Below the pieces are notes generated by a model. It was not told where the DNA came from. It searched no databases and saw nothing but the letters and a program-made list of their open reading frames with translations. Positions 7,651 to 64,000 of a stretch of 64,000 nucleotides of DNA are shown piece after piece. The DNA is from an uncultured archaeon (lineage in GTDB: Archaea; Aenigmatarchaeota; Aenigmatarchaeia; CG10238-14). The translations under genes and the position numbers were made by a program. The stretch is taken from contig CAYMPD010000003.1 in NCBI GenBank assembly GCA_964392445.1, positions 2,573 through 66,572 of the forward strand, in the 5' to 3' direction. Position 1 is the stretch's first letter. Each line of letters begins with the position of its first letter.

Positions 7651-7685
7651 TTACCCTCACAGAAGTTATAGTTAAAATCAAATAA

Positions 7686-40176: not shown

Positions 40177-40243
40177 ATTTTTTCATAAGATAATATTGAA
40201 TTTTGCCGATAAAAACTTACTAAAACTTGATGAAGAAGAACCA

Positions 40244-40349
40244 TGCAGGGGGTGAGATTCGAACTCACGAACCGACTAACGGACAGAGTCCTAAGCATCG
40301 CAAACCTTTTCGATTTCCTGCGCCTTTGACCAGACTTGGCGACCCCTGC
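40244..40349 (-). tRNA. tRNA-Leu(TAG) with about 20-nt intron at a non-canonical position (anticodon stem)
   Basis: Acceptor gcagggg/cccctgc; class-II D-arm GCCAAGTCTGGTCAAAGGC; anticodon loop CTTAGGA; long variable arm; T-arm gtgag-ttcgaat-ctcac; 106 nt total, 86 nt after removing AAATCGAAAAGGTTTGCGAT. Confidence 0.7.
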
Positions 40350-41051
40350 TTATAATTTCAAAGATACAAATGGAAATGTATTTTTAAATCTATTTGCATC
40401 CTCCTCTTTCCCAATTATCACATCAAAGATGGGTTTTTTAGATACGTTGTGCTTCCAGCTAGATGTAAATGGAGAAATATTAAATCTATTTAATGCTTTT
40501 TTGATATCAGAGGAGAGAGCTTCACTTGAAGACGTGAATGAAATTCTACCGTTCTTATTCCCTCCATCGGCTAAGAAAAGACCAGACAGGAAGAATTTCA
40601 AACAACCCATGTTCTTCTTTATATAATCTGGGATTTTTACTTTATCGCTTTTTTTACCACATGGTATCTCGAAAATTTTGTTGAATAAGGTCCAAACAGC
40701 TTTATTATCAAACTCAATTTTCCATCTAATTTTCCTATTCTCTCTTGTGTCTAGTTTTTTCTTTAGTTTAAGATCAAGTTTGAAAGTTTTATTAAATTTT
40801 AACATCACAAGTTTCATCAATCCTCTATTGGCCATTTCTATAGTTATTCTAAATCTACCATCCTTTGTTAAATGACCATCTCCGATAATGATTCCGGAAA
40901 GAAAGGACAAATCAGGAGTTACATTTATAGGTATTTCTCTAATATTTTTACCCCAGAAATTTGATTTACACCAAATTTTTTCCGAATTTTTCTTAACAAC
41001 TGCTATTCTAGTATCCTTTTCTATTTCTTTGACAAATTCGTTGAAATTCAT
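40350..41051 (-). CDS. LAGLIDADG homing endonuclease (two-motif, single chain)
   Basis: LSGIIIGDGHL and LSGLFLADGG motifs; stop codon abuts the 5' end of tRNA-Leu. Confidence 0.7.
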   Translation of the reverse strand: MNFNEFVKEIEKDTRIAVVKKNSEKIWCKSNFWGKNIREIPINVTPDLSFLSGIIIGDGHLTKDGRFRITIEMANRGLMKLVMLKFNKTFKLDLKLKKKLDTRENRKIRWKIEFDNKAVWTLFNKIFEIPCGKKSDKVKIPDYIKKNMGCLKFFLSGLFLADGGNKNGRISFTSSSEALSSDIKKALNRFNISPFTSSWKHNVSKKPIFDVIIGKEEDANRFKNTFPFVSLKL

Positions 41052-41861: not shown

Positions 41862-41949
41862 TGCTCCCGACGGGATTCGAACCCGTGTCCTCGGCTATCT
41901 TCCAGAAGTCGAAAGGCCGATATCCTTGGCCGGACTAGACTACGGGAGC
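41862..41949 (-). tRNA. tRNA-Glu(TTC) with 13-nt intron
   Basis: Acceptor gctcccg/cgggagc; anticodon stem tcggc/gccga; loop CTTTCGA; intron ACTTCTGGAAGAT (internal cttc/gaag helix); T-arm acggg-ttcgaat-cccgt; 88 nt. Confidence 0.7.
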
Positions 41950-41954
41950 TTGAG

Positions 41955-42043
41955 TGGGCCGAACAGGATTTGAACCTGTGATTTCTGCCATTTTGATTCG
42001 AAAATCGTCAAGGCAGCGTCTTAACCAACTGGACCATCGGCCC
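41955..42043 (-). tRNA. tRNA-Val(GAC) with 15-nt intron
   Basis: Acceptor gggccga/tcggccc; anticodon stem ctgcc/ggcag; loop TTGACGA; 15-nt insert; T-arm acagg-ttcaaat-cctgt; 89 nt. Confidence 0.7.
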
Positions 42044-42075
42044 TTGCTAACTAATAATGACAATAATAATTTAAA

Positions 42076-42088
42076 TTCGTTTATGACG
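42076..42088. repeat. attL-like direct repeat: 13-bp copy of tRNA-Ser 3' end (ACGCTGAGGGTGG)
   Basis: Identical to 46225..46237, which spans T-stem/acceptor/discriminator of tRNA-Ser; followed by 11-bp terminal inverted repeat TTAAGTATAAC at 42099..42109. Confidence 0.7.
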
Positions 42089-42510
42089 CTGAGGGTGGAA
42101 TAGAAAGCTTAAGTATAACCCAAGTGGCTGACTAGTGCCATTATAGCTACCTGTGCTTATATAGTTTTTTACTATTTATGATTTTAGTGTAAGGTGCGGT
42201 TTTGATGGTAAAACTACAATAAGTAAAAAATAGATACTCAATTACAATTCCAAAGGAGTATGTTAAACTCAAGAAATGGGAGAAAGGACAGGAGCTAGTT
42301 GTAGGTTTAATGGGGACTGTGATAGATGTAAACTGTGAGTTAGAGAACATCTAGTTAGTAAAAAAATGGAAATAAAGAATAAAGTTACGCATTGAAATCC
42401 ACTAAAAAAGGAGTTGTTTCTTTGTAATACAGGCAATTCCTATAAGTATCAGATATTTAAAATTATTTATCATAATTGAATCAGACAGGATTTAATGATT
42501 CATCGATAAG

Positions 42511-43806
42511 ATGATAATGATTCAAATGCAAAATCAAATCCCCTATCAGGAAGTAGAAGAATGTAGAGTATGTGGGGGTACGGATTTCACACCATATCTG
42601 GATTTAGGAGAAATGCCTTTGGTTAATAGACTTTTAACAGACCCAAACGATCCTGATCCAAAATTTCCTTTAGAAGTACTCTACTGTAATGATTGTTCAA
42701 ATTCTCAGTTAAGTGTAGTAGTAGACCCATCCATTCTTTTCAGAGATTATGTATATCGTTCCTCAATGTCACAAACTTATATGGATCATTGTGCCCGTAT
42801 GGCTCGATTATCAGAAAGGGAATTGGATATGTCAGAGGGCGATCTTGTAGTAGATATAGCGTCTAATGATGGAGCTCTTCTTCAACAATTTAAACCATAT
42901 AATGTTAGAGTACTCGGGATTGACCCAGCAACTAATCTTGCTAAAATTGCGACTGAAGAAGGAATACCGACAATCGCAGAATTTTGGCCGGGTGATTTAC
43001 CAGAAAGAATAATTGAAGAGTATGGTCCAGCTAAAATAATTACTGCAACTAATGTATTTGCTCATGTGGGTGATATCCAAGGATTTGCAAGGGGGGTTTA
43101 TGATCTACTTGATGAAGAGGGAACCTTTATGGTTGAATTTCCATATATGGTAGATTTGATTCAAAATGGTTGTTTTGATACAATTTATCATGAACATCTA
43201 TCATATTTTTTAGTTTCTCCCCTAGTAGAACTTTTTAGAAGAGTTGGTTTAGATATAGCTCGGGTCGATAGATTACCAATACATGGTGGGAGCGTAAGAC
43301 TTTATGTAAGAAAAGACGGTTCTATAGAAACTTCTGTGGAAGAAAATCTTTTAATGGAGGAGGAAATGGGATACCATGATATTAGTAGATATTTAGGATT
43401 TGCAGAAAAAACAGATGAAGTTAGAGAAGATTTATTAGATCTACTAGAACAAAAACAGACTAGGGGAGAAAGTGTGGCAGCTTTTGGCGCAGCTGCCAAG
43501 GGGACTATTTTATTAAATTATTGTGATATTGGACCAGAAATCATTCCGTATATTGTAGATGATACACCTGAAAAACAAGGAAAATATATACCTGGGATGC
43601 ATATACCTGTGGTCTCTAGAGATAGATTGACCAGATCAATACCTGATAATCTCTTAATCTTACCATGGAACTTTTTAACAGAAATTCTATCAAATACAGC
43701 ATCTTTTAGATCTACAGGGGGTTCGTATATAGCTGCTATACCTCGTGTCCGTGTAATAAAACCTGAGAGAATCAAAACGGATAGAGTACCTGTAGCCCAG
43801 ATTTAA
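42511..43806 (+). CDS. sugar C-methyltransferase-like SAM-dependent methyltransferase (TylC3/TcaB9-like architecture)
   Basis: N-terminal Cys4 zinc-binding region (CRVCGG…CNDCSNSQL); central SAM-binding fold (VVDIASNDGAL); C-methyltransferase-like C-terminus; 431 aa. Confidence 0.55.
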   Translation: MIMIQMQNQIPYQEVEECRVCGGTDFTPYLDLGEMPLVNRLLTDPNDPDPKFPLEVLYCNDCSNSQLSVVVDPSILFRDYVYRSSMSQTYMDHCARMARLSERELDMSEGDLVVDIASNDGALLQQFKPYNVRVLGIDPATNLAKIATEEGIPTIAEFWPGDLPERIIEEYGPAKIITATNVFAHVGDIQGFARGVYDLLDEEGTFMVEFPYMVDLIQNGCFDTIYHEHLSYFLVSPLVELFRRVGLDIARVDRLPIHGGSVRLYVRKDGSIETSVEENLLMEEEMGYHDISRYLGFAEKTDEVREDLLDLLEQKQTRGESVAAFGAAAKGTILLNYCDIGPEIIPYIVDDTPEKQGKYIPGMHIPVVSRDRLTRSIPDNLLILPWNFLTEILSNTASFRSTGGSYIAAIPRVRVIKPERIKTDRVPVAQI

Positions 43807-44119
43807 TGAATTATTAGTAAAAAATCTCCCGAACCATCAATAACTAAACTTAACACTGTAATTATTTACACCCATGACTCCCGCATACACGCACATCCCT
43901 CTTGTCCAAAACAACTCACACGTTCTAAATTAATCCTTCCCGCTTCGCAGTAACTCTTATTATGGACCTTCCGTGTGTGTCCTCCCAGAGGTGATGTGCT
44001 ATGCAAAGTGTAAATAGAACTGTTAGAAGAGTTAATGAAGAGCTGTTTGGTTTCGGAGATTTCTGGGTTGATAGAGATTGAGAGGTCTCCTTGCTTTATA
44101 TTCTCCTATTCAGATACTT

Positions 44120-44500
44120 TTATGCCAATATTTCAACGACTCTCTCACAAGAACTTTTATAAAAAATATGTTCGTATCCAGAAAAAGATTCTTCACGAAT
44201 CTCATCTAAGTGTGAGCTTAATCTACCTGTAATACCTATCATTGTAGGGAGAGTTGCATAATGTCTTCTCGCCACTTCTAAAACATCTTGTGGTCCATTA
44301 CTTCTATACCTCCTTGCTCCTTTTCTTGAGAGGCCACTAATCCCAGCATCCACTATGATAGCATCATATGAACTCTCAAAAATTCTATCTCTAGCTTGAG
44401 TAGCATTATGAGCTACATCAACTTCGTATCCTCTACGAGATAAAAATCCTCCATAACCGTCTCTGAAAGAATGATCATCTTCTACTAACAAAATTTTCAT
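44120..44500 (-). CDS. CheY-like response-regulator receiver domain protein (stand-alone REC)
   Basis: MKILLVEDDHSFRDGYGGFLSRRGYEVDVAHNATQARDRI…YDAIIVDAGISG; start moved to the internal Met. Confidence 0.55.
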   Translation of the reverse strand: MKILLVEDDHSFRDGYGGFLSRRGYEVDVAHNATQARDRIFESSYDAIIVDAGISGLSRKGARRYRSNGPQDVLEVARRHYATLPTMIGITGRLSSHLDEIREESFSGYEHIFYKSSCERVVEILA

Positions 44501-44809
44501 AACTAAAACTAGATGGTTAGATATAAAAAAGTGATTTTCTCTGCCCATGATAACTAGGTCTTCTACCATGCAAACAGTCGAATTAAACCCGATTATGCAA
44601 GTCATGTTCTCCCGAGGAATAGTATCGCTTGTATCTACGGGTTATTAGTAGTAGCTTTCATTCTCCTGACATCCCATTTCGGTTTAAAGACGACGAAATG
44701 TACTAGAACCTATCACGTCCTTTACTGGTTGCTTGCTAGCGTGTTCTTGATTAACTTTGTTAGGGAGTTGATTTTGTTTTGAATGGGTTGAGAAAGTCTT
44801 ATTTAATAA

Positions 44810-45115
44810 CTATCCTGTTGTAACATACCTCATAGCTGGTCTCTCAACTCTTTCTATATAACCCCTGTGCTCTCTTCGTAATGCAAGACTAATTTCGTCT
44901 TCTTGGTCCACTGGGACTCTAACTCTGTATGTTCGACTAAGTGCTCTTACTCGTGGGTCTTGAAAACCTTCTGCTAATTCAAACGGGCGGTCATATTCAA
45001 ATCCTGTAAGTATTTCTTGAATTTGAGTTTCTTCGGTACCTTCAACAAAAGTAACCAGCAATCTTCCAGAAGAAGTAACAGGCCTACCTTGGTCATCAGT
45101 ATCCCGATCAATCAT
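44810..45115 (-). CDS. hypothetical protein (element cargo)
   Basis: 101-aa ORF, GC-richer; no motif recognised. Confidence 0.35.
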   Translation of the reverse strand: MIDRDTDDQGRPVTSSGRLLVTFVEGTEETQIQEILTGFEYDRPFELAEGFQDPRVRALSRTYRVRVPVDQEDEISLALRREHRGYIERVERPAMRYVTTG

Positions 45116-45239
45116 AGTATATTATTAAGTAAGAACATTATTAATATCGACTTTTATACTTCGTAGAAATTAAAAACCCAAAAGTCCTAAATTTGGAATT
45201 CAATTTTTCTATTTGAGATGAAAGATTAGAGATAAAAGA

Positions 45240-45611
45240 TTGCATGTCCAACTAATTAATATGACTGGAGGAGTTGGAGAAGAACCCCTTGGAACTGAAA
45301 GTGCAAATATAGTCCGAGTAACGGAAAAATGGCAAACTGATGAAAAGGGAGATAGATACTCTGATACTTCCGCTTTTTATCAATTCGCTCAAGGCGATGG
45401 TTATGGTAACAATCATAGCGATCCCTTTACGGCATTGAATTATGCACTACTTAACGCAGAAACAAATAGGAAAGGACGGGTCCCAGAATCTATCAAAGCT
45501 ATAATTGAATTATTACCTGTAAGTAGAAGACTTAGACCCGCGATGGAAATAAGACTTGAAGAGCACGCTAGATCGCTAGGAGTTCCAGTTGATGTTAAAT
45601 ACATAAGGTAA
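45240..45611 (+). CDS. hypothetical protein (element cargo)
   Basis: 123-aa ORF; no motif recognised. Confidence 0.35.
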   Translation: MHVQLINMTGGVGEEPLGTESANIVRVTEKWQTDEKGDRYSDTSAFYQFAQGDGYGNNHSDPFTALNYALLNAETNRKGRVPESIKAIIELLPVSRRLRPAMEIRLEEHARSLGVPVDVKYIR

Positions 45612-45744
45612 TCTTGTGTAAATATTCGCTAAAACATAAGCCTATTTCAAGTATCCTAGGATATATTAACTCATTCACTAACACCGAAATTTTTTCTATT
45701 TACACCAAAAATAACTATAATAAATTCAGTTGGCATTACTATCC

Positions 45745-46077
45745 TCACAATATTTCTTTCAAGGCCCCCTGACTTCTTAACCTATCTCTCATAGTAGTAT
45801 AAATCTCATCTATTGTTATCTGCCTCTCTGCTTCAGTTCTAGGAAAATATAGTATATTTCCATCTGGATCTAGTTCCATCAGATAAATAGAACCTGAAGT
45901 GAATTTGGAATCTCCCGTCAAAAATGTAAATCGCCATCTATAACCACGTTCTTCTGATTCCCAATCCCATGCCCAATCATTTGCTTTCTTAATACAAGCT
46001 CTAGGATCCACTTCCCGACTTACTCTTCTATATGCACTATTAGCTTCTCTTTTTACTTCATCCAAATCGTATGGCAT
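45745..46077 (-). CDS. hypothetical protein (element cargo)
   Basis: 110-aa ORF; no motif recognised. Confidence 0.35.
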   Translation of the reverse strand: MPYDLDEVKREANSAYRRVSREVDPRACIKKANDWAWDWESEERGYRWRFTFLTGDSKFTSGSIYLMELDPDGNILYFPRTEAERQITIDEIYTTMRDRLRSQGALKEIL

Positions 46078-46225
46078 GAAATAAATATGAGGGTGAAATT
46101 TAAATAATCAATTATACCCCTAAAAGACCGAGTTAATCCCAGATTCCTATCTTATCTCCCGCTCGCCTTATACTTGAACTCACATCCCCGTCAAAGACCC
46201 CTCCAAAGTTATACTTAAACTCTAA

Positions 46226-46308
46226 CGCTGAGGGTGGGATTTGAACCCACAAGCCACAAGGGCGCTAGTTTAGCAGACTAGTGCGATACCAGATTACGCG
46301 ACCTCAGC
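46226..46308 (-). tRNA. tRNA-Ser(GCT)
   Basis: Acceptor gctgagg/cctcagc; class-II D-arm; anticodon stem ctagt/actag; loop CTGCTAA; 14-nt variable arm; T-arm gtggg-ttcaaat-cccac; 83 nt; its 3' end forms the attR-like repeat. Confidence 0.8.
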
Positions 46309-46396
46309 ACACACCATAGTTCACAGTTAAATTATTAATCTATTAAAACTTAATAAATTCAATAGTCTATAATTATTGTTAAGGAGGTTAAAAAAT

Positions 46397-57771: not shown

Positions 57772-58014
57772 TTATAAACCATATCTCCTAAAAAAGTCAG
57801 AGTCCTCGACGAGTTCCCGTTCTAATTCTATCTCGAAATCAGAATCTCCTTGCATTGTTAATAAATAGCTAGAATTCACTTCTTCTGTCCTTTTCGGAAG
57901 ATCGAGAACTTCATAAAGGACATCTACAGATATTTCTGAGTACCCAGGTGGTTGTCTTACACATTCAAGTGAAGTCCGTCTACAGTAAAGGGGTTCTCCG
58001 TCCATATTTTTCAC
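57772..58014 (-). CDS. hypothetical acidic small protein
   Basis: 80-aa ORF; its upstream region carries repeat copy A. Confidence 0.3.
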   Translation of the reverse strand: MKNMDGEPLYCRRTSLECVRQPPGYSEISVDVLYEVLDLPKRTEEVNSSYLLTMQGDSDFEIELERELVEDSDFFRRYGL

Positions 58015-58084
58015 TTAATATTCTTTCTAATCTGTTAATTATTAATAGTTTAACCTTTACTCGAGCTTCCATCCTAGAACTTAC

Positions 58085-58137
58085 CTTGTCAAAGTTTGGT
58101 TCTGATATTACTTAGATCTAATCCTTGGTTTTTGAGT
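58085..58137. repeat. about 53-bp direct repeat copy A (Fic-flanking)
   Basis: cttgtcaaagtttggttctgatattacttagatctaatccttggtttttgagt; 47/53 identical to copy B. Confidence 0.8.
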
Positions 58138-58149
58138 AGCTAGAAAATC

Positions 58150-59130
58150 CTAGATATAATCAACTTCTTTGATATATTTCACAATAAGTTTTACAAAAGG
58201 TTTTAGATTACCTTCATTCGCTTTGTTTAGAGCTAAAAAATACCTTCTTTTATCCCTATTTTTGATATCGATCATCGGATAACCCTTCTTCTTCAGAATA
58301 AAATTTAGTATTAGTCTTCCTGTTCTACCATTACCATCTATAAAGGGATGAATGTTTTCGAAAACAGAGTGAAAATATGCTGCTACAACAACTGGATGAT
58401 ATTTGCTTTTATTGTAACCATACCATCTCATTAGTTTTGTGAATTCTTCGTTGACTTTATCTGGTTTAGGTGGGATTACGTTTGATCCAGCGATGAAAAC
58501 TTGGACATCTCTGAAAACCCCTGCTTTTTCTTTGAGTATATTATGCATAAGTTTCTTATGGATATTTAAAATGAATTTCCTTGTGAGATTACCTTTATAA
58601 TTTATCATGTAGTCAAATGCATCTTTGTGGTTCTTAATCCAATCTATTTCCCAAAGTTCTTTTCCTTTTGGTGTGGTATTTTCGAATAACACTAATTTTG
58701 TCTCAATTAGATTTAATGTAGAACCTTCTATTGCGTTTGTGTTGTAGGTGAATTTTGTTAGGAACCATTCATAGTATTTTTCCCACCCAGCTTTTCCAAG
58801 TTTTTTAAGGTATTTGGAGTATTCTTTTTTAATTTCTTCTAATTTTCCAAGTTCTTTCTGTTTTAAGATACCCATCAAAGGATCGTTTGATTTGAGGAAG
58901 TTAGTGACTTTATTTTGGAGTTTTTTCTTGTTCTTTTTTGTTAATTTTTTTATTTCTTTCTCAGTTTTCTCGCCCTTTCCAAGATAAACTCTGATCTTCT
59001 TCCATTTTTTCCCATTTCTTATATTTTCAGTTAAATAGTGGTACTTATTCCCTTTTTTTTCAATAACCTCGTGATACATAATAATAGTTTGGGCACACTT
59101 ATTTAAATAATTATCATCAATTGTGCACAA
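58150..59130 (-). CDS. Fic/Doc family protein with intramolecular inhibitory motif
   Basis: Fic motif HPFIDGNGRTGRL; upstream TNAIEG matches (S/T)xxxE(G/N) inhibitory helix motif; 326 aa. Confidence 0.8.
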   Translation of the reverse strand: MCTIDDNYLNKCAQTIIMYHEVIEKKGNKYHYLTENIRNGKKWKKIRVYLGKGEKTEKEIKKLTKKNKKKLQNKVTNFLKSNDPLMGILKQKELGKLEEIKKEYSKYLKKLGKAGWEKYYEWFLTKFTYNTNAIEGSTLNLIETKLVLFENTTPKGKELWEIDWIKNHKDAFDYMINYKGNLTRKFILNIHKKLMHNILKEKAGVFRDVQVFIAGSNVIPPKPDKVNEEFTKLMRWYGYNKSKYHPVVVAAYFHSVFENIHPFIDGNGRTGRLILNFILKKKGYPMIDIKNRDKRRYFLALNKANEGNLKPFVKLIVKYIKEVDYI

Positions 59131-59180
59131 ACTAATGCTTCATATCTTTTAGTCAATTAAACAATTTTTACCATAATCGA

Positions 59181-59234
59181 CTCGTCAAAGTTTGGTCTCG
59201 ATATTACTTAGATCTAATCCTTGTTGTTTGAGTC
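59181..59234. repeat. about 53-bp direct repeat copy B (Fic-flanking)
   Basis: ctcgtcaaagtttggtctcgatattacttagatctaatccttgttgtttgagt. Confidence 0.8.
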
Positions 59235-59358
59235 TTAGGATAAAAAATTATTGGTATGGTACGTCAAGGGGGTTTAAGGAAAAGGAAATTATATTACCAA
59301 TTTTAATTCCTTTGAAGGAAAGTTAAATATTTAAATATTTTCACCTATTATAATAGAT

Positions 59359-59631
59359 ATGGAAATTGATAAAAAGGATGAGAAAAAATCAAAAATGGAA
59401 AACAGTGAAAGTTCGAGGGAGAGATTTAAAAGACTTGCGATGGCCAGAACTAATACTGTACTTAAAAAATTAGATGTTCTTGGAAATTGTGCAAATCGAT
59501 ATGTTTATGAATACACCCAAGAAGATATACAAAAAATTTTCGATACTATTAATAAAAAGATAAAAGAAACGAAATTACTTTTTGATTCTGGTTTGGTGTC
59601 TAAGAAAAGGGAGGTTGAGTTTAAACTCTAG
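59359..59631 (+). CDS. hypothetical small protein
   Basis: 90-aa ORF, first gene of plus-strand cluster. Confidence 0.35.
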   Translation: MEIDKKDEKKSKMENSESSRERFKRLAMARTNTVLKKLDVLGNCANRYVYEYTQEDIQKIFDTINKKIKETKLLFDSGLVSKKREVEFKL

Positions 59632-59641
59632 GTTGATCAAT

Positions 59642-60223
59642 ATGGGAGATAGAATTGATTTTAGTAAGCAAAATTTATGGAGACTCCCCGATGATATTAA
59701 AAAACGTGTAGTTAAGCATAAGACCCCATCTTCAAAAGAGGAGGGTGAAATAAGTAAATGGATCGCAATAGCCTTAGCTAGATTAGATACCCATGATGAA
59801 ATGAGAGACATTGCAAAACAAATCCATCCTTCTACTGAATATAAACCTTTTAATAAAGCTATCACGGCTTACAAAAAGACTTCTGAAGATACCAAAAAAG
59901 ATGTAAGGGAAGGAAAAATTCCTATAATGAGATTAATAAGAAATGGAACTGAAAATAAAAGAATATCAAAAGAGGATCAAGAGAATTGGATTTTATATAA
60001 GAACGCGAAAAAGGTACAGGATCAATTGAATTTATTTTATAAAAATTTGAAAGTTTTTTTAGATGGGACACCCGAAGATAGAAAATATCTTAAAGAGTTT
60101 CTGAAACCTCAAAAAATCCATTATATAGCTTCTTTGTTATCCTGTATAAGGAATGAGGAACTTCTGAAATCTTTTAAAAAGCAACAGGGAATTAAATCTT
60201 TAGAGGAATTTAGGGGTGAGTAA
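59642..60223 (+). CDS. hypothetical protein (start moved to MGDRIDF…)
   Basis: About 193 aa; stop 2 nt before the GHKL ATPase gene start (coupled). Confidence 0.4.
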   Translation: MGDRIDFSKQNLWRLPDDIKKRVVKHKTPSSKEEGEISKWIAIALARLDTHDEMRDIAKQIHPSTEYKPFNKAITAYKKTSEDTKKDVREGKIPIMRLIRNGTENKRISKEDQENWILYKNAKKVQDQLNLFYKNLKVFLDGTPEDRKYLKEFLKPQKIHYIASLLSCIRNEELLKSFKKQQGIKSLEEFRGE

Positions 60224-60225
60224 AA

Positions 60226-61995
60226 ATGAGTAAAGAGTATCTCGGAAAATTGAAAATTCCCGAGGATCAAATGGATTGGGTTATAAGTCAACTGGGAAAA
60301 ACTTTCAGATATCCTTTTCATGCTTTTAGGCAATATATTGATAATGCAAAAGATTCTGTTAAAATAAGAAAAATGTACGATAATTCTTTTTCTGAAGAAG
60401 AAAAATTAATAAAAATAGAACTCATGCGTAGTAAGAATAGGGATGAAAGAAAAATAAGAATTGTGGATTTCGGGACTGGTATTACACCTAAAGAGGCTGT
60501 GTGGGAAACTCCTCAAGGAGATATAATAAGGGATGAAAAAGGAGAGAAGATTCCTTACATAAATAGTTTTAGATACATGAAAAATAATGTTGCAAATTCT
60601 GTTAAGAGGGCTCAAAAAGAAGTTACAGGAGAAAAAGCTGTAGGAATGTTGGCTTTCCTAAAATTAAATTGCAAAAAATTAAAATTCATAAGTAAAGTTT
60701 CCTCAACAGGGGAAACATATACTTATAGTATTAACGAAAATCTCGAGTGCCATTGGGAAAGGGGCGGGGATAAAAAATTCAAAGAGTCAGGGACTGAAGT
60801 TATTTTAGAAGGGATGCACGGTAAAACATTTGAAAATTATTTTAATCCTCGTAGGTTAAAACTAAATTTACGTAAAATATATCACCAGGATCTCTTGAGA
60901 GACATTATTAAAATTTCAGTAGAATATATAATCGCTGATAAAAAAGTAAAAGGAAGAGGAAGGAAGAGAGAGAGCCCTTTTTTTGAGATAAAACCAATGA
61001 AAATCACGGGTGAGCAGTTTGAGCCAACACAAATTAAGACAAAAACAGGAAAACTTGTAAGTATCAATTTAAAATTAACGGATAAACCAAGGAAAGATCC
61101 TTTCATAAGAATCAATAATAGAGGTACTGGGGGGGTTCCAGCTGAAACAGTCTTTTATAACCCAATTTGGGAGAATGAATATACCCAAGGTTTTATTGAT
61201 GTTGATTTTCTAAATTTTGCAGGTCATGACAAGAGCAGTTTTGAACAGGATAAAACTTTGGAAGAATTGGAAAATGCATTAGAAGAAAAAGTAGTCCCAA
61301 AACTTGCTGAAAATATCAGTGAAATAAAGAAGAGAAAGTCTCAAAGAAATATAATGGATACAATAGAAATTCTGAAGGTAGCCCTTTCTAGAACTATTAA
61401 AAATTTAGACATTCGGATAGAAGGTACGGTCGAGAGAACAAAAACATGTCCTCAATGTGGGAAAAAATTATCTTATAATCATAAGTTTTGTCCTGATTGC
61501 GGTTATGAATTCCCTCGAGCGACTAAACATTGTAGATTTTGTGACGAAGAAATACCTTCCAATGCTAAAACTTGCCCTAAGTGTGGTAAAAATCTGATAG
61601 AAAAAATAAAATGTAAATATTGTGGTGAATTAATACCAGAATTAAGTAGAGTCTGTCCAGAATGTGGAGAAAGGTTAAGATCTAAAAGAAAGGAACCGAA
61701 GGGCAAGACACCAGATATATTTCCTCAACCTTTAGGTCCAGAAGGTCCCCGAAGTGCTATTGATAAAGAAAATGGGCATCTAAGGGTTATTCAGATAAAC
61801 CAGGATCACAGTGATTATCAAAGGGCTCTAGAAGAGGGTTATGATAAGCTTTATATGTCCATTCTGACCTCCAAAGAAATTGCAAAATTTATGTATGGAG
61901 AGGAGAAATCTGATTATACGGAGGATCTTTTGGAAATATTTTTAGAGATATTTAATGAGTTAATAACTATAAAATCAATAGACTATAGAGAGTGA
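60226..61995 (+). CDS. MORC-like GHKL-family ATPase with four C-terminal zinc ribbons
   Basis: Bergerat-fold motifs: N-box FRQYIDNAKDS, G1 IVDFGTGI, G2 GEKAVGMLAF; C-terminal CPQCG…CPDCG, CRFCD…CPKCG, CKYCG…CPECG (4 CxxC pairs). Confidence 0.6.
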   Translation: MSKEYLGKLKIPEDQMDWVISQLGKTFRYPFHAFRQYIDNAKDSVKIRKMYDNSFSEEEKLIKIELMRSKNRDERKIRIVDFGTGITPKEAVWETPQGDIIRDEKGEKIPYINSFRYMKNNVANSVKRAQKEVTGEKAVGMLAFLKLNCKKLKFISKVSSTGETYTYSINENLECHWERGGDKKFKESGTEVILEGMHGKTFENYFNPRRLKLNLRKIYHQDLLRDIIKISVEYIIADKKVKGRGRKRESPFFEIKPMKITGEQFEPTQIKTKTGKLVSINLKLTDKPRKDPFIRINNRGTGGVPAETVFYNPIWENEYTQGFIDVDFLNFAGHDKSSFEQDKTLEELENALEEKVVPKLAENISEIKKRKSQRNIMDTIEILKVALSRTIKNLDIRIEGTVERTKTCPQCGKKLSYNHKFCPDCGYEFPRATKHCRFCDEEIPSNAKTCPKCGKNLIEKIKCKYCGELIPELSRVCPECGERLRSKRKEPKGKTPDIFPQPLGPEGPRSAIDKENGHLRVIQINQDHSDYQRALEEGYDKLYMSILTSKEIAKFMYGEEKSDYTEDLLEIFLEIFNELITIKSIDYRE

Positions 61996-62141
61996 TGCTG
62001 TATATCTTCATTAATACTATTAATTATTTTGATAGAGTAATTTATTTCCCCTCCCCTCTAATCCCTTTTAATAACTTTCTGTAATATCAACCCGAATTAA
62101 ATTACCGATCTTTTTATCTCCACACCCGAATTAATTAACTA

Positions 62142-62720
62142 ATGAAAGATGTTAATCCGTTTAAAATTGAAGAAAAAATGGTATTAGAAATTATTCGTGA
62201 TTCTTCTAAACATATGAAGGGACTGATGAAATACCTTCAAGAGATAGATGTGGATTTGAAAAGTAAGTTGAAATCAGAGATATTTAGTAAGCTCGTGGAA
62301 ATAAACAGTGCAAAAATATTTTCTAAATATCTAGGATATGAAGTCATAGCTGCAAAATCTGACAGGGACCCAGACCTATACTTTACCAAATTAGAAAAGC
62401 CTCTGGAGGTGAAAATTACAGTCACGAAAGGTACTTGGACGGGGGGCGAATTCAGTAAAAGAACTTCTCATTATTTACTTATTTCCCGTAGTCGTAATTT
62501 TGATAAATTTTTTGTAACTTTAGTTTTTTTGAAAGAGGATGAATGGGAATCCAGTATGGAAAAAGGATATAATTTCTATGGGCCACGTCTCTCTAAAAAA
62601 TATCTATATGGTAAAGATGAAAAAATTATCTTCCTGGGGGGTTTAGTAAAAGAGGAAAATAGGAAAACTCCTACATTGATTAGGGAGAGTATAAATTCTA
62701 AAAACCTATCCGAATTTTAG
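62142..62720 (+). CDS. PD-(D/E)xK nuclease-fold protein (restriction endonuclease candidate)
   Basis: GYEV…DPDLYFTKLEKPLEVKITV gives E…PD…ExK spacing; tail-to-tail with methyltransferase gene. Confidence 0.45.
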   Translation: MKDVNPFKIEEKMVLEIIRDSSKHMKGLMKYLQEIDVDLKSKLKSEIFSKLVEINSAKIFSKYLGYEVIAAKSDRDPDLYFTKLEKPLEVKITVTKGTWTGGEFSKRTSHYLLISRSRNFDKFFVTLVFLKEDEWESSMEKGYNFYGPRLSKKYLYGKDEKIIFLGGLVKEENRKTPTLIRESINSKNLSEF

Positions 62721-62724
62721 ACAC

Positions 62725-64000
62725 CTATTTCTCAAAAATTAGTACACTCTCCTTTTTAATATTCCCATAACTCGTCTTTTGCAACTCTCTTCTTATCAAC
62801 TTATCTTGCTTGAATCCCAAGTTCTTCCCAATATCAGCCAACACCTTACTATTTGGTATTTCCACAAAGTCTCCATTTACTTTGAAATGATTATTTCCTA
62901 TAATAACCGCAGCTTTACTACCTTTTTTCATAACCCTTTTCATCTCCTTAAACGAATAGAACATATCTATGAAGAATTTGTAAACCCTCAAAGCCGCATT
63001 TTTCCTTCCATTGTTAAGAAGTAATTCAACGTATTTATGAGCTAATTTTGATATTTTGAGTGGATCTTTTTCTTCATCCTCAATCATTTCCAGTAATTCT
63101 TCCTTGTCATAATTTATCCTAGGATTACCCATCATATTCTGTTCCAGATCCTCCTTGGAATCTACGAGTTTTAACATTCTCAATTGAGGATAGTCATTTT
63201 TAATATAATCCAAAGCCGTTGAATAAGGTGGAGAATTTACAATGCCATTAATTTGTCCAGGATTAATCACATCCATAGCTCTGGTGTCAGTACAGTGAGT
63301 TTCTGAAGCACCGGGTTTTATTTTCAGTAAATCATTTAATTCATGGAAAAGGAATAATCTCAAATAGATATCATTTAAACGATCTTCAAAAACACTATAA
63401 AACTCATTCTTAGTTCTTCTAGCCACATCGCTTATTGAACCAGATAAAGCTAATAAAAAGAACTCCTTAATTGGACCTTCTTTCATTTTTTTAATCAATT
63501 CTCTTGCTATTATAATCTTTTTTACAACATCTACACTATTCCTAAACTTTGCAAAGTCCGTAACATCCTTATATAATTCTTCAGCCTCTTTTTCGACTTC
63601 CTCAAACTCAATTCCATTGTTCCCTAGAGTTTCTTGTCCCCTTACGTTGGTCTCAAATATTTTTATCTTCCTTTTCAATTCAACTAAATACTCATCAATA
63701 TTTTTTTTCAATTCTTTTGGTTCAATTTTTAGAGAATTACATTTCACATTAGACATCAAAACCGATAAAGGGTTTATTTCGACTCCTCTACTATCCAATT
63801 CAATATGTGATGCTTCTAGAAGTAAAGTACCACTACCTGCGAAATTATCTAATACTACACCTTCACTCTTAGGATAAACATAATTCAATAACGCACGTAC
63901 CATTTTTGGATGGAACTTTCCCTTGTAAGGATGAATGTAGTGATTAAGATATAATGAAGGCTCTTCGCGAATAGCAAAATAGTCTTCTAGTCTTTTCCCT
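62725..64000 (-). CDS. DNA methyltransferase (N6-adenine/N4-cytosine type), 5'-partial: reading frame continues past window end
   Basis: Motif I VLDNFAGSGTLLLEA; motif IV NSPPYS; hand translation shows no stop upstream of the listed Met through position 64000. Confidence 0.7.
   Translation of the reverse strand, partial: GKRLEDYFAIREEPSLYLNHYIHPYKGKFHPKMVRALLNYVYPKSEGVVLDNFAGSGTLLLEASHIELDSRGVEINPLSVLMSNVKCNSLKIEPKELKKNIDEYLVELKRKIKIFETNVRGQETLGNNGIEFEEVEKEAEELYKDVTDFAKFRNSVDVVKKIIIARELIKKMKEGPIKEFFLLALSGSISDVARRTKNEFYSVFEDRLNDIYLRLFLFHELNDLLKIKPGASETHCTDTRAMDVINPGQINGIVNSPPYSTALDYIKNDYPQLRMLKLVDSKEDLEQNMMGNPRINYDKEELLEMIEDEEKDPLKISKLAHKYVELLLNNGRKNAALRVYKFFIDMFYSFKEMKRVMKKGSKAAVIIGNNHFKVNGDFVEIPNSKVLADIGKNLGFKQDKLIRRELQKTSYGNIKKESVLIFEK

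Follow-up and report, generated by a model that had tools for sequence, protein, structure and literature searches.

How has a block of 4.1 kb come to lie between a tRNA-Ser gene and a tRNA-Val gene that are separated by only 43 bp in several related archaea, and what kind of enzyme might have placed it there? The question is raised by a stretch of 64,000 nucleotides from an uncultured archaeon of the Aenigmarchaeota (assembly GCA_964392445.1, contig CAYMPD010000003.1, positions 2,573 to 66,572), which is the whole of the DNA that was analyzed and is referred to as the window. From the letters of this DNA alone it had been proposed that the block, called the islet in the following, is an element integrated at the 3' end of the tRNA-Ser gene (the original prediction). 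This reading is supported by empty sites in relatives, by an intact tRNA gene and by the absence of an integrase.

A lineage-specific insertion at the 3' end of tRNA-Ser

The DNA from 42099 to 46224 is a lineage-specific insertion at the 3' end of tRNA-Ser, which leaves the tRNA intact and has exact boundaries. This is shown by comparison with related loci, which were gathered via aIF5A (two Aenigmarchaeota DPANN metagenome-assembled genomes (MAGs) with 81–87% identity), via the 90% cluster of TFB and via a scan with the 3' half of tRNA-Ser. In five related Aenigmarchaeota contigs (L001, L016, L018, L020 and L021) the site is empty, i.e., tRNA-Ser and tRNA-Val are separated by 43 bp and the 13-mer ACGCTGAGGGTGG, of which the window holds two copies, is present only once. 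tRNA-Glu comes next after tRNA-Val in L001, L018 and L020, which are the empty-site contigs extending far enough. By blastn, window positions 42044–42101, comprising the spacer, the left 13-mer and 3 nt, align contiguously to the spacer and the tRNA 3' end of the empty site, and positions 46221–46309 align to the tRNA-Ser of the relatives plus 4 nt. Both junctions of the window therefore map to one single site in the relatives, which identifies the 4,126 bp in between as the insertion. The search for such an empty site had been named as a check in the original prediction, and its outcome supports insertion.

The tRNA-Ser is identical at 85/85 positions to that of L006, L007 and L018. The ancestral spacer, which the islet has cut off from tRNA-Ser, shares 97.6% identity with that of L006/L007 and 79–86% with those at the empty sites. 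The genes on the flanks, which encode aIF5A, a histone, TFB and aIF2-alpha, are archaeal.

In other relatives the gap between tRNA-Ser and tRNA-Val measures 135 bp (L002), 143 bp (L014 and L019), 425 bp (L006 and L007) or 1,028 bp (L003). The 425-bp gap holds an open reading frame (ORF) of 99 aa and the 1,028-bp gap a patatin gene; the fillings of all these gaps are unrelated, and a second 13-mer is present in none of them. The gap downstream of tRNA-Ser is a recurrent hotspot, and the repeat architecture of the islet is unique among the loci examined.

Several of these loci show features of their own. The filling in L006 (8096–8478; also in L007), which represents the closest relative, is 383 bp long, carries the 99-aa orphan ORF and lies exactly at the boundary between spacer and tRNA-Ser. 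It has no copy of the 13-mer, its flanks share only the 7-nt repeat TAAATTC, and the idea that it is a deletion derivative of the islet was rejected as there is no sequence similarity. In L017, which stems from a different archaeon, the tRNA-Ser 3' end together with the upstream AAAAT is directly but imperfectly repeated (1857–1882 and 1993–2015), the copies being ~110 bp apart. An intron in its tRNA-Ser is apparent by eye, and ARAGORN calls no tRNA on this contig. The repeat may have been left behind when another element integrated at, or was excised from, this target. Finally, the block tRNA-Ser-PRC-PqqD-aIF5A-histone is inverted in L005 (8559–9895) relative to L003 (8443–9811), and one breakpoint lies at the 3' end of tRNA-Ser beside the patatin gene.

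Repeats at the insert ends

The 13-mer ACGCTGAGGGTGG occurs in exactly two copies in the window, both on the + strand. Chance occurrences were estimated from the base composition at ~1e-4, and when one mismatch was allowed, 0 of 100 dinucleotide-preserving shuffles of the window yielded even one match. The right copy runs through the tRNA-Ser nucleotides up to the discriminator, includes 1 nt beyond and matches the left copy at 13/13 positions. The left copy occupies the place that is held by the tRNA-Ser 3' end in the alignment with the empty-site relatives, 42 bp away from tRNA-Val.

Just inside the direct repeats lie the two arms of a perfect 11-nt inverted repeat (Table 1). Between two random 40-nt segments of the window, an inverted match of at least 11 nt arises with a frequency of ~8e-4. 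If gaps are allowed, the left arm extends outward (TAGAAAGC-), and one 2-nt gap is sufficient to carry the inverted repeat almost to the direct repeats, with TAGAAAGCTTAAGTATAAC situated 2 nt from the left one and TAGAGTTTAAGTATAAC directly adjoining the right one. Conservation of the inverted repeat is best in its inner part, and its outermost nucleotides do not agree (AATAGA vs TAGAGT). Moreover, a third copy of the motif, not contained in the original prediction, lies 41 bp from the right arm and in direct orientation relative to it. With at most 2 mismatches, the 15-nt motif is found at four sites in 64 kb, i.e., the three copies at the islet ends and 7665–7679.

Most of this architecture had been recognized before. 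The presence of two 13-mers, with the right copy at 46225–46237 being the 3' end of tRNA-Ser, is confirmed by exact search and Rfam, and the tRNA-Val said to adjoin the left copy was found as tRNA-Val(GAC) at 41955–42043. The left copy itself had been placed at 42076–42088, which is off by 10 from its actual position, 42086–42098. Likewise, the inverted repeat exists and its right arm is located at 46208–46218 as described, whereas the left arm, given as 42099–42109, really lies at 42109–42119.

The first 60 nt inside the left repeat (42099–42158) show a weak collinear similarity to the body of tRNA-Ser (local alignment p ~0.024, anchored global p ~0.008), and Rfam recognizes no tRNA in them even at E ≤ 1. 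This similarity is suggestive only: it might be a relic of a tRNA-like sequence at the attachment (att) site of the incoming element (attP) or a hint of a homology-driven crossover.

Table 1. Coordinates of the features at the tRNA-Ser locus, in window positions.
Feature	Position	Strand	Details
tRNA-Val(GAC), 15-nt intron, left chromosomal neighbour	41955–42043	-	Rfam 57.5 bits
Ancestral tRNA-Ser/tRNA-Val spacer, cut off from tRNA-Ser by the islet	42044–42085	.	homology to the relatives' spacers
Left direct repeat, putative attL core	42086–42098	.	displaced copy of the tRNA-Ser 3' end
Islet body	42099–46224	.	4,126 bp; absent from 5 empty-site relatives
Inverted repeat, left arm TTAAGTATAAC	42109–42119	+	perfect 11 nt, 10 nt inside the left direct repeat
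tRNA-Ser-like patch	42127–42141	.	13/15 identical to 46273–46287 (D/anticodon-arm region)
Possible AbrB/MazE-type small regulator pseudogene	42205–42354	+	Pfam MazE_antitoxin, weak, E = 0.12; in-frame TAA at codon 6
Sugar-nucleotide C-methyltransferase-like gene, 431 aa	42511–43806	+	Methyltransf_14 E = 1.4e-51; Methyltransf_13 E = 8.7e-17
Stand-alone CheY-like receiver, 126 aa from ATG at 44500	44120–44500	-	Response_reg E = 1.2e-7, N-terminal half only
101-aa ORF, small rare family, ferredoxin-like fold (model)	44810–45115	-	5 homologues
116-aa orphan ORF (116/123 aa)	45261–45611	+	no Pfam or NCBIfam match
110-aa orphan ORF adjoining the right end	45745–46077	-	low-confidence model, pLDDT 54 (too poor to use)
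Third motif copy	46167–46181	-	CTTATACTTGAACTC; GAGTTCAAGTATAAG on the - strand
Inverted repeat, right arm GTTATACTTAA (+ strand reading)	46208–46218	-	6 nt inside the right direct repeat
Right direct repeat, putative attR core	46225–46237	.	final 12 nt of tRNA-Ser and 1 nt downstream
tRNA-Ser(GCU), intact target gene	46226–46308	-	ARAGORN; Rfam 59.1 bits

Cargo genes and composition of the islet

The cargo agrees with the earlier description, i.e., a C-methyltransferase (Methyltransf_13/14, E = 1e-51), a receiver and three small ORFs (101, 116/123 and 110 aa) without a Pfam match. The C-methyltransferase belongs to a very large family, and its database version begins 2 codons later. Its closest full-length homologues are ~53% identical, the named ones being bacterial and archaeal, and one partial protein is 66% identical over 71% of the query. 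The longest ORF of the receiver reaches 44605, and the NCBIfam entries that match the receiver best are those of two-component response regulators from bacteria, e.g., QseB, PmrA and VanR-B. For the 101-aa ORF, 5 distant homologues were found among 1.84 billion representatives. Its structural model (predicted local distance difference test score (pLDDT) 72.6) is generic ferredoxin-like and has no match in the PDB at E ≤ 0.001. Two of its homologues were looked up; one has a GT2 glycosyltransferase as its neighbour, and no mobile-element genes are called in the stretch around the other. The 110-aa and 116-aa ORFs have no homologue besides themselves in 5.8 billion proteins.

The original prediction had called the insert visibly GC-richer than its surroundings. 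The total GC content is not unusual, with 36.1% in the islet vs 34.6% in the window, and it was rejected as a sign of foreignness since an equal or higher value is reached by 21.5% of windows of the same size. The codon positions do differ. In the five islet ORFs, GC at third codon positions (GC3) amounts to 0.20–0.24 vs 0.30 ± 0.04 in the host (Mann-Whitney p = 1.8e-4), and GC at first and second positions (GC1+2) to 0.42–0.51 vs 0.37 ± 0.04 (p = 5e-4). ORFs of at least 100 aa cover 68% of the insert vs 80% of the rest of the window. Furthermore, the non-coding stretches 43807–44119 and 44606–44809 have a GC content of 0.38–0.39, higher than in all host intergenic segments (maximum 0.368), and are read as decayed coding sequence. 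Due to the low GC3 and high GC1+2, the low coding density and the GC-rich non-coding stretches the insert looks foreign and partly degraded. Signs of decay are the low coding density, the possible AbrB-like ORF with its in-frame stop and the two GC-rich non-coding stretches.

Within the islet, a C-rich and relatively GC-rich non-coding stretch at 43862–44004 forms a long-range hairpin with z ~ -2.7 on both strands and has no Rfam match; it might represent either a small RNA or defunct coding sequence.

Search for a recombinase and for relatives of the islet

A six-frame translation of 42099–46224 was compared with Pfam and contains no remnant of an integrase, resolvase, transposase or Cas1, on which grounds a hidden integrase or transposase pseudogene was rejected and the earlier statement that the enclosed DNA lacks a recombinase is borne out. 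The weak MazE_antitoxin match is the sole additional signal in this comparison. Similarly, the five islet ORFs showed no integrase in comparisons with Pfam, PHROGs and NCBIfam, and 20 further ORFs across the window showed no integrase, transposase, Cas1 or PolB. At 19 loci carrying the same tRNA-Ser, inspection (no Pfam scan) revealed no integrase-like ORF beside the tRNA and no copy of the motif.

The comparison of the cargo with viral and plasmid databases, which had also been suggested as a check, was performed and found no relatives. IMG/VR contains no relatives of the three small ORFs, the five islet ORFs matched no PHROGs family of known function (unknown-function families only), and the islet DNA has no blastn match to phage or plasmid collections. 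A viral origin was rejected, as the comparisons with IMG/VR, PHROGs and the phage and plasmid collections were uninformative or negative. One viral match, L025, was obtained with a pattern comprising the palindrome only; it was judged to be due to chance, since it has no tRNA and reads like coding DNA (untranslated).

How the islet may have been inserted

A circular element bearing its own att site probably recombined with the 3' end of tRNA-Ser(GCU) and is present today as a defective or non-autonomous islet; that the insertion was made by a site-specific recombinase is, taken by itself, also rather likely. The combination of a tRNA-derived direct repeat with an unchanged tRNA is the classical signature of tRNA-gene integration. 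What we infer is which type of enzyme acted, that the intermediate was circular and what part the inverted repeats played. The empty target would have been an attB with the spacer end and core ...CGTTTATG-ACGCTGAGGGTGG-GATTTGAACC, and the circular element would have presented the attP junction ...GTTATACTTAAACTCTA-ACGCTGAGGGTGG-AATAGAAAGCTTAAGTATAAC...; joining both insert ends gives a putative attP of approximately GTTATACTTAA-ACTCTA-ACGCTGAGGGTGG-AATAGAAAGC-TTAAGTATAAC. Strands would have been exchanged within the 13-bp core, most likely by a site-specific recombinase of the tyrosine type. By this exchange 4,126 bp would have come to separate tRNA-Ser from the 43-bp spacer that leads to tRNA-Val, with tRNA-Ser exactly rebuilt and the displaced 13-bp copy left beside the spacer. 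The 11-nt arms, along with the additional copy located 41 bp from the right arm, would then be probable binding sites of the recombinase or of an accessory protein.

The joined ends form a palindrome-like site of 51 bp, the symmetry centre of which lies inside the 13-bp identity and in which an inner TCTA/TAGA pair flanks the core. This putative layout would be as expected for a site bound by a dimeric site-specific recombinase. Moreover, the 4 nt of the islet abutting the tRNA (TCTA) equal the spacer end of L018 and not that of the islet's own lineage (TATG), with a chance probability of ~0.01. As weak evidence, this match favors a core borne by the element over a target-site duplication (TSD).

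The islet has no recombinase, replication or transfer function and cannot move by itself. Either it has lost its integrase and is a defective derivative, or it is a non-autonomous element that relied on an integrase in trans. Within the recombinase reading the defective derivative is slightly favored. The signs of decay argue for a defective remnant; the perfect 13/13 and 11/11 repeats fit a recent arrival or sites that are still used. It appears unlikely that the islet still functions as a non-autonomous integrative element of DPANN archaea, i.e., a counterpart of the bacterial cis-mobilizable elements (CIMEs) or mini-island, served by an integrase elsewhere in the genome or in a host or symbiont partner; an integrase supplied from elsewhere would explain perfect repeats without a carried recombinase.

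Several observations weigh against insertion of a circular element by a recombinase. Neither a recombinase nor a circular form or a second copy was found. As exact patterns, the right arm with the 13-mer gave 0 matches in the metagenome contig collection and the 13-mer with the left arm gave 0 matches in the viral contig collection. No cargo gene is a hallmark of mobile elements, there are no viral or plasmid relatives, and the data comprise 64 kb of one MAG contig. The unrelated gap fillings without the 13-mer repeat show that insertions at this site do not all leave the same repeat. The inverted arms are 29 bp apart, far wider than the 6–8 bp that are typical of the core sites of tyrosine recombinases. 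Finally, a gapped inverted repeat that reaches nearly to the direct repeats also suits a transposon with terminal inverted repeats (TIRs) and a TSD.

A non-autonomous TIR element of the transposon type, e.g., one derived from a casposon, might have duplicated the 13 bp by a staggered cut at the 3' end of tRNA-Ser with a transposase or casposase encoded elsewhere. The gapped inverted repeat lies 2 nt and 0 nt from the direct repeats as would suit such an element, several binding-site copies at one end are also known from transposon ends, and casposons target tRNA 3' ends with TSDs of 14 bp (PMC4779613). We regard this origin as quite unlikely, however, as neither Cas1 nor PolB nor a transposase is encoded in the islet or in the window ORFs tested, the ends recur neither elsewhere in the window nor at the 22 related loci compared, the inverted repeat is perfect in its inner part and mismatched at its terminal nucleotides (AATAGA vs TAGAGT), and the TCTA matching the spacer of another lineage suits an att site carried by the element better. 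The absence of an integrase would be accounted for by a Campbell-type insertion through host recombination, in which a diverged tRNA-Ser-like segment on circular DNA crossed over with the tRNA gene over 13–16 shared bp. The 60 nt inside the left repeat, with their 13/15 patch and p ~0.008, do resemble the tRNA-Ser body like a decayed copy of it. However, this similarity is weak and is unrecognised by Rfam at E ≤ 1, 13–16 bp are very short for homologous recombination, and the 11-nt inverted repeat and its third copy are left unexplained, making host recombination very unlikely.

That there was no insertion at all, the 4.1-kb arrangement being ancestral and lost in the relatives or the contig being mis-assembled at the tRNA, is highly improbable. 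It is true that the gap between tRNA-Ser and tRNA-Val is variable (43, 135, 143, 425 and 1,028 bp) and that the source is a MAG contig, the interior of the islet being independently assembled for 44382–45434 only (contig L009 of 1,053 bp from SRR7048227, 100% identical, junctions not covered). However, the same 43-bp spacer recurs in five relatives, some of them distant, synteny with the relatives holds on both flanks, and the 13-bp repeat is far below the k-mer sizes of assemblers. Independent precise deletions that each left one 13-mer would, moreover, themselves imply a site-specific excision. Recombination of a circular element with the tRNA gene is the preferred explanation of the islet.

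Comparison with known integrated elements

Integrative elements or genomic islands placed by a tyrosine recombinase in the 3' part of tRNA genes are also known from Sulfolobus and Thermococcales. For integrated elements of Thaumarchaeota, att sites with a median of 17 bp and a minimum of 8 bp were reported (PMC6563490), which places a core of 13 bp within the archaeal range. With such tRNA-integrated archaeal elements the islet shares the tRNA 3' end as target, the tRNA-derived repeat, the restored tRNA, the short core and a cargo that is mostly of unknown function. It differs from them in having no integrase gene or fragment and no genes for replication, virions or conjugation, in its size of only 4.1 kb and in the perfect 11-nt arms that stand 29 bp apart around the core.

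In Streptococcus and other Firmicutes, CIMEs are flanked by attL and attR, lack genes for recombination and transfer and are moved when a related integrative and conjugative element integrates alongside. The term is used in PMC5704250, PMC7563491 and PMC6323972. Similarly, the islet has intact att-like repeats, no integrase and only accessory cargo, and would in principle be excisable by a cognate integrase. Unlike CIMEs, it resides in an archaeal host, no accretion or tandem arrays are seen, and a cognate autonomous element that uses this site was found neither in the window nor at the 22 related loci compared.

Archaeal integrases of the SSV type split their own gene upon integration. The islet resembles such elements in that it lies in an archaeal tRNA gene and that no intact integrase gene is apparent in the integrated state. 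It differs as there are no int(N) and int(C) halves at its repeats and no integrase homology in the six-frame Pfam scan, and its terminal non-coding stretches of only 412 and 147 bp are too short for halves of an SSV-type integrase. Casposons and remnants consisting of solo TIRs were described at tRNA-Leu in Methanosarcina, with 14-bp TSDs at tRNA 3' ends (PMC4779613). The islet is similar in its tRNA 3' target and in a 13-bp direct repeat (14 bp in casposons) beside inverted repeats. It is dissimilar in being single-copy, in lacking Cas1 and PolB and in the non-terminal position of the perfect part of its inverted repeat.

With its empty site, its tRNA-derived repeats and no recombination genes the islet has the structure of tRNA-integrated, CIME-like islands. 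It is of a kind that is already known, i.e., a small genomic islet of the ordinary type, and comes from a lineage (Aenigmarchaeota, DPANN) that has been little studied.

Further features of the window

Three tRNA genes neighbouring the islet (tRNA-Leu, tRNA-Glu and tRNA-Val) contain short introns, and their orthologues in the close relatives L001, L003 and L006 are intron-free. tRNA-Leu(TAG) at ~40243–40348 (- strand) has an intron of ~20 nt and was overlooked by ARAGORN and by Rfam. tRNA-Glu(TTC) at 41862–41949 (- strand) has an intron of 13 nt and was miscalled as Arg(tcg) by ARAGORN. A free-standing ORF resembling LAGLIDADG homing endonucleases is found at 40350–41051 on the - strand (Pfam LAGLIDADG_3, E = 2e-14); its stop codon is immediately adjacent to tRNA-Leu at the 5' end of the latter, and the ORF is absent at the same place in L006. 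An ORF of L017 (238–948) is similar to it by eye only (GDGS motif) and lies beside an apparent intron-bearing tRNA that ARAGORN did not call. A permissive Rfam search across the islet returned only the three tRNAs and a sub-threshold match to Plastid-ycf2 (34.7 bits vs a gathering threshold of 65.7) on the strand opposite to tRNA-Val.

Towards the end of the window, the region 58000–64000 has a low GC content of 0.30–0.32. It encodes a Fic/DOC protein (58150–59130), a zinc-ribbon/HATPase-like protein of 589 aa (60226–61995), an ORF with a sub-threshold partial match to the DNA-methylase family N6_N4_Mtase (62725–63903) and several ORFs without a Pfam match. This may be another accessory or defence region.

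Implications for DPANN archaea

The mobile elements of DPANN archaea are barely catalogued, and the locus represents a cleanly bounded horizontal gene gain at a tRNA gene in Aenigmarchaeota. It offers exact boundaries, an empty site and candidate recombinase-binding arms. The sugar C-methyltransferase that was gained may change the surface glycans. Should the att sites have retained their activity, the locus would be a documented case of archaeal islands that lack an integrase and are mobilised in trans.

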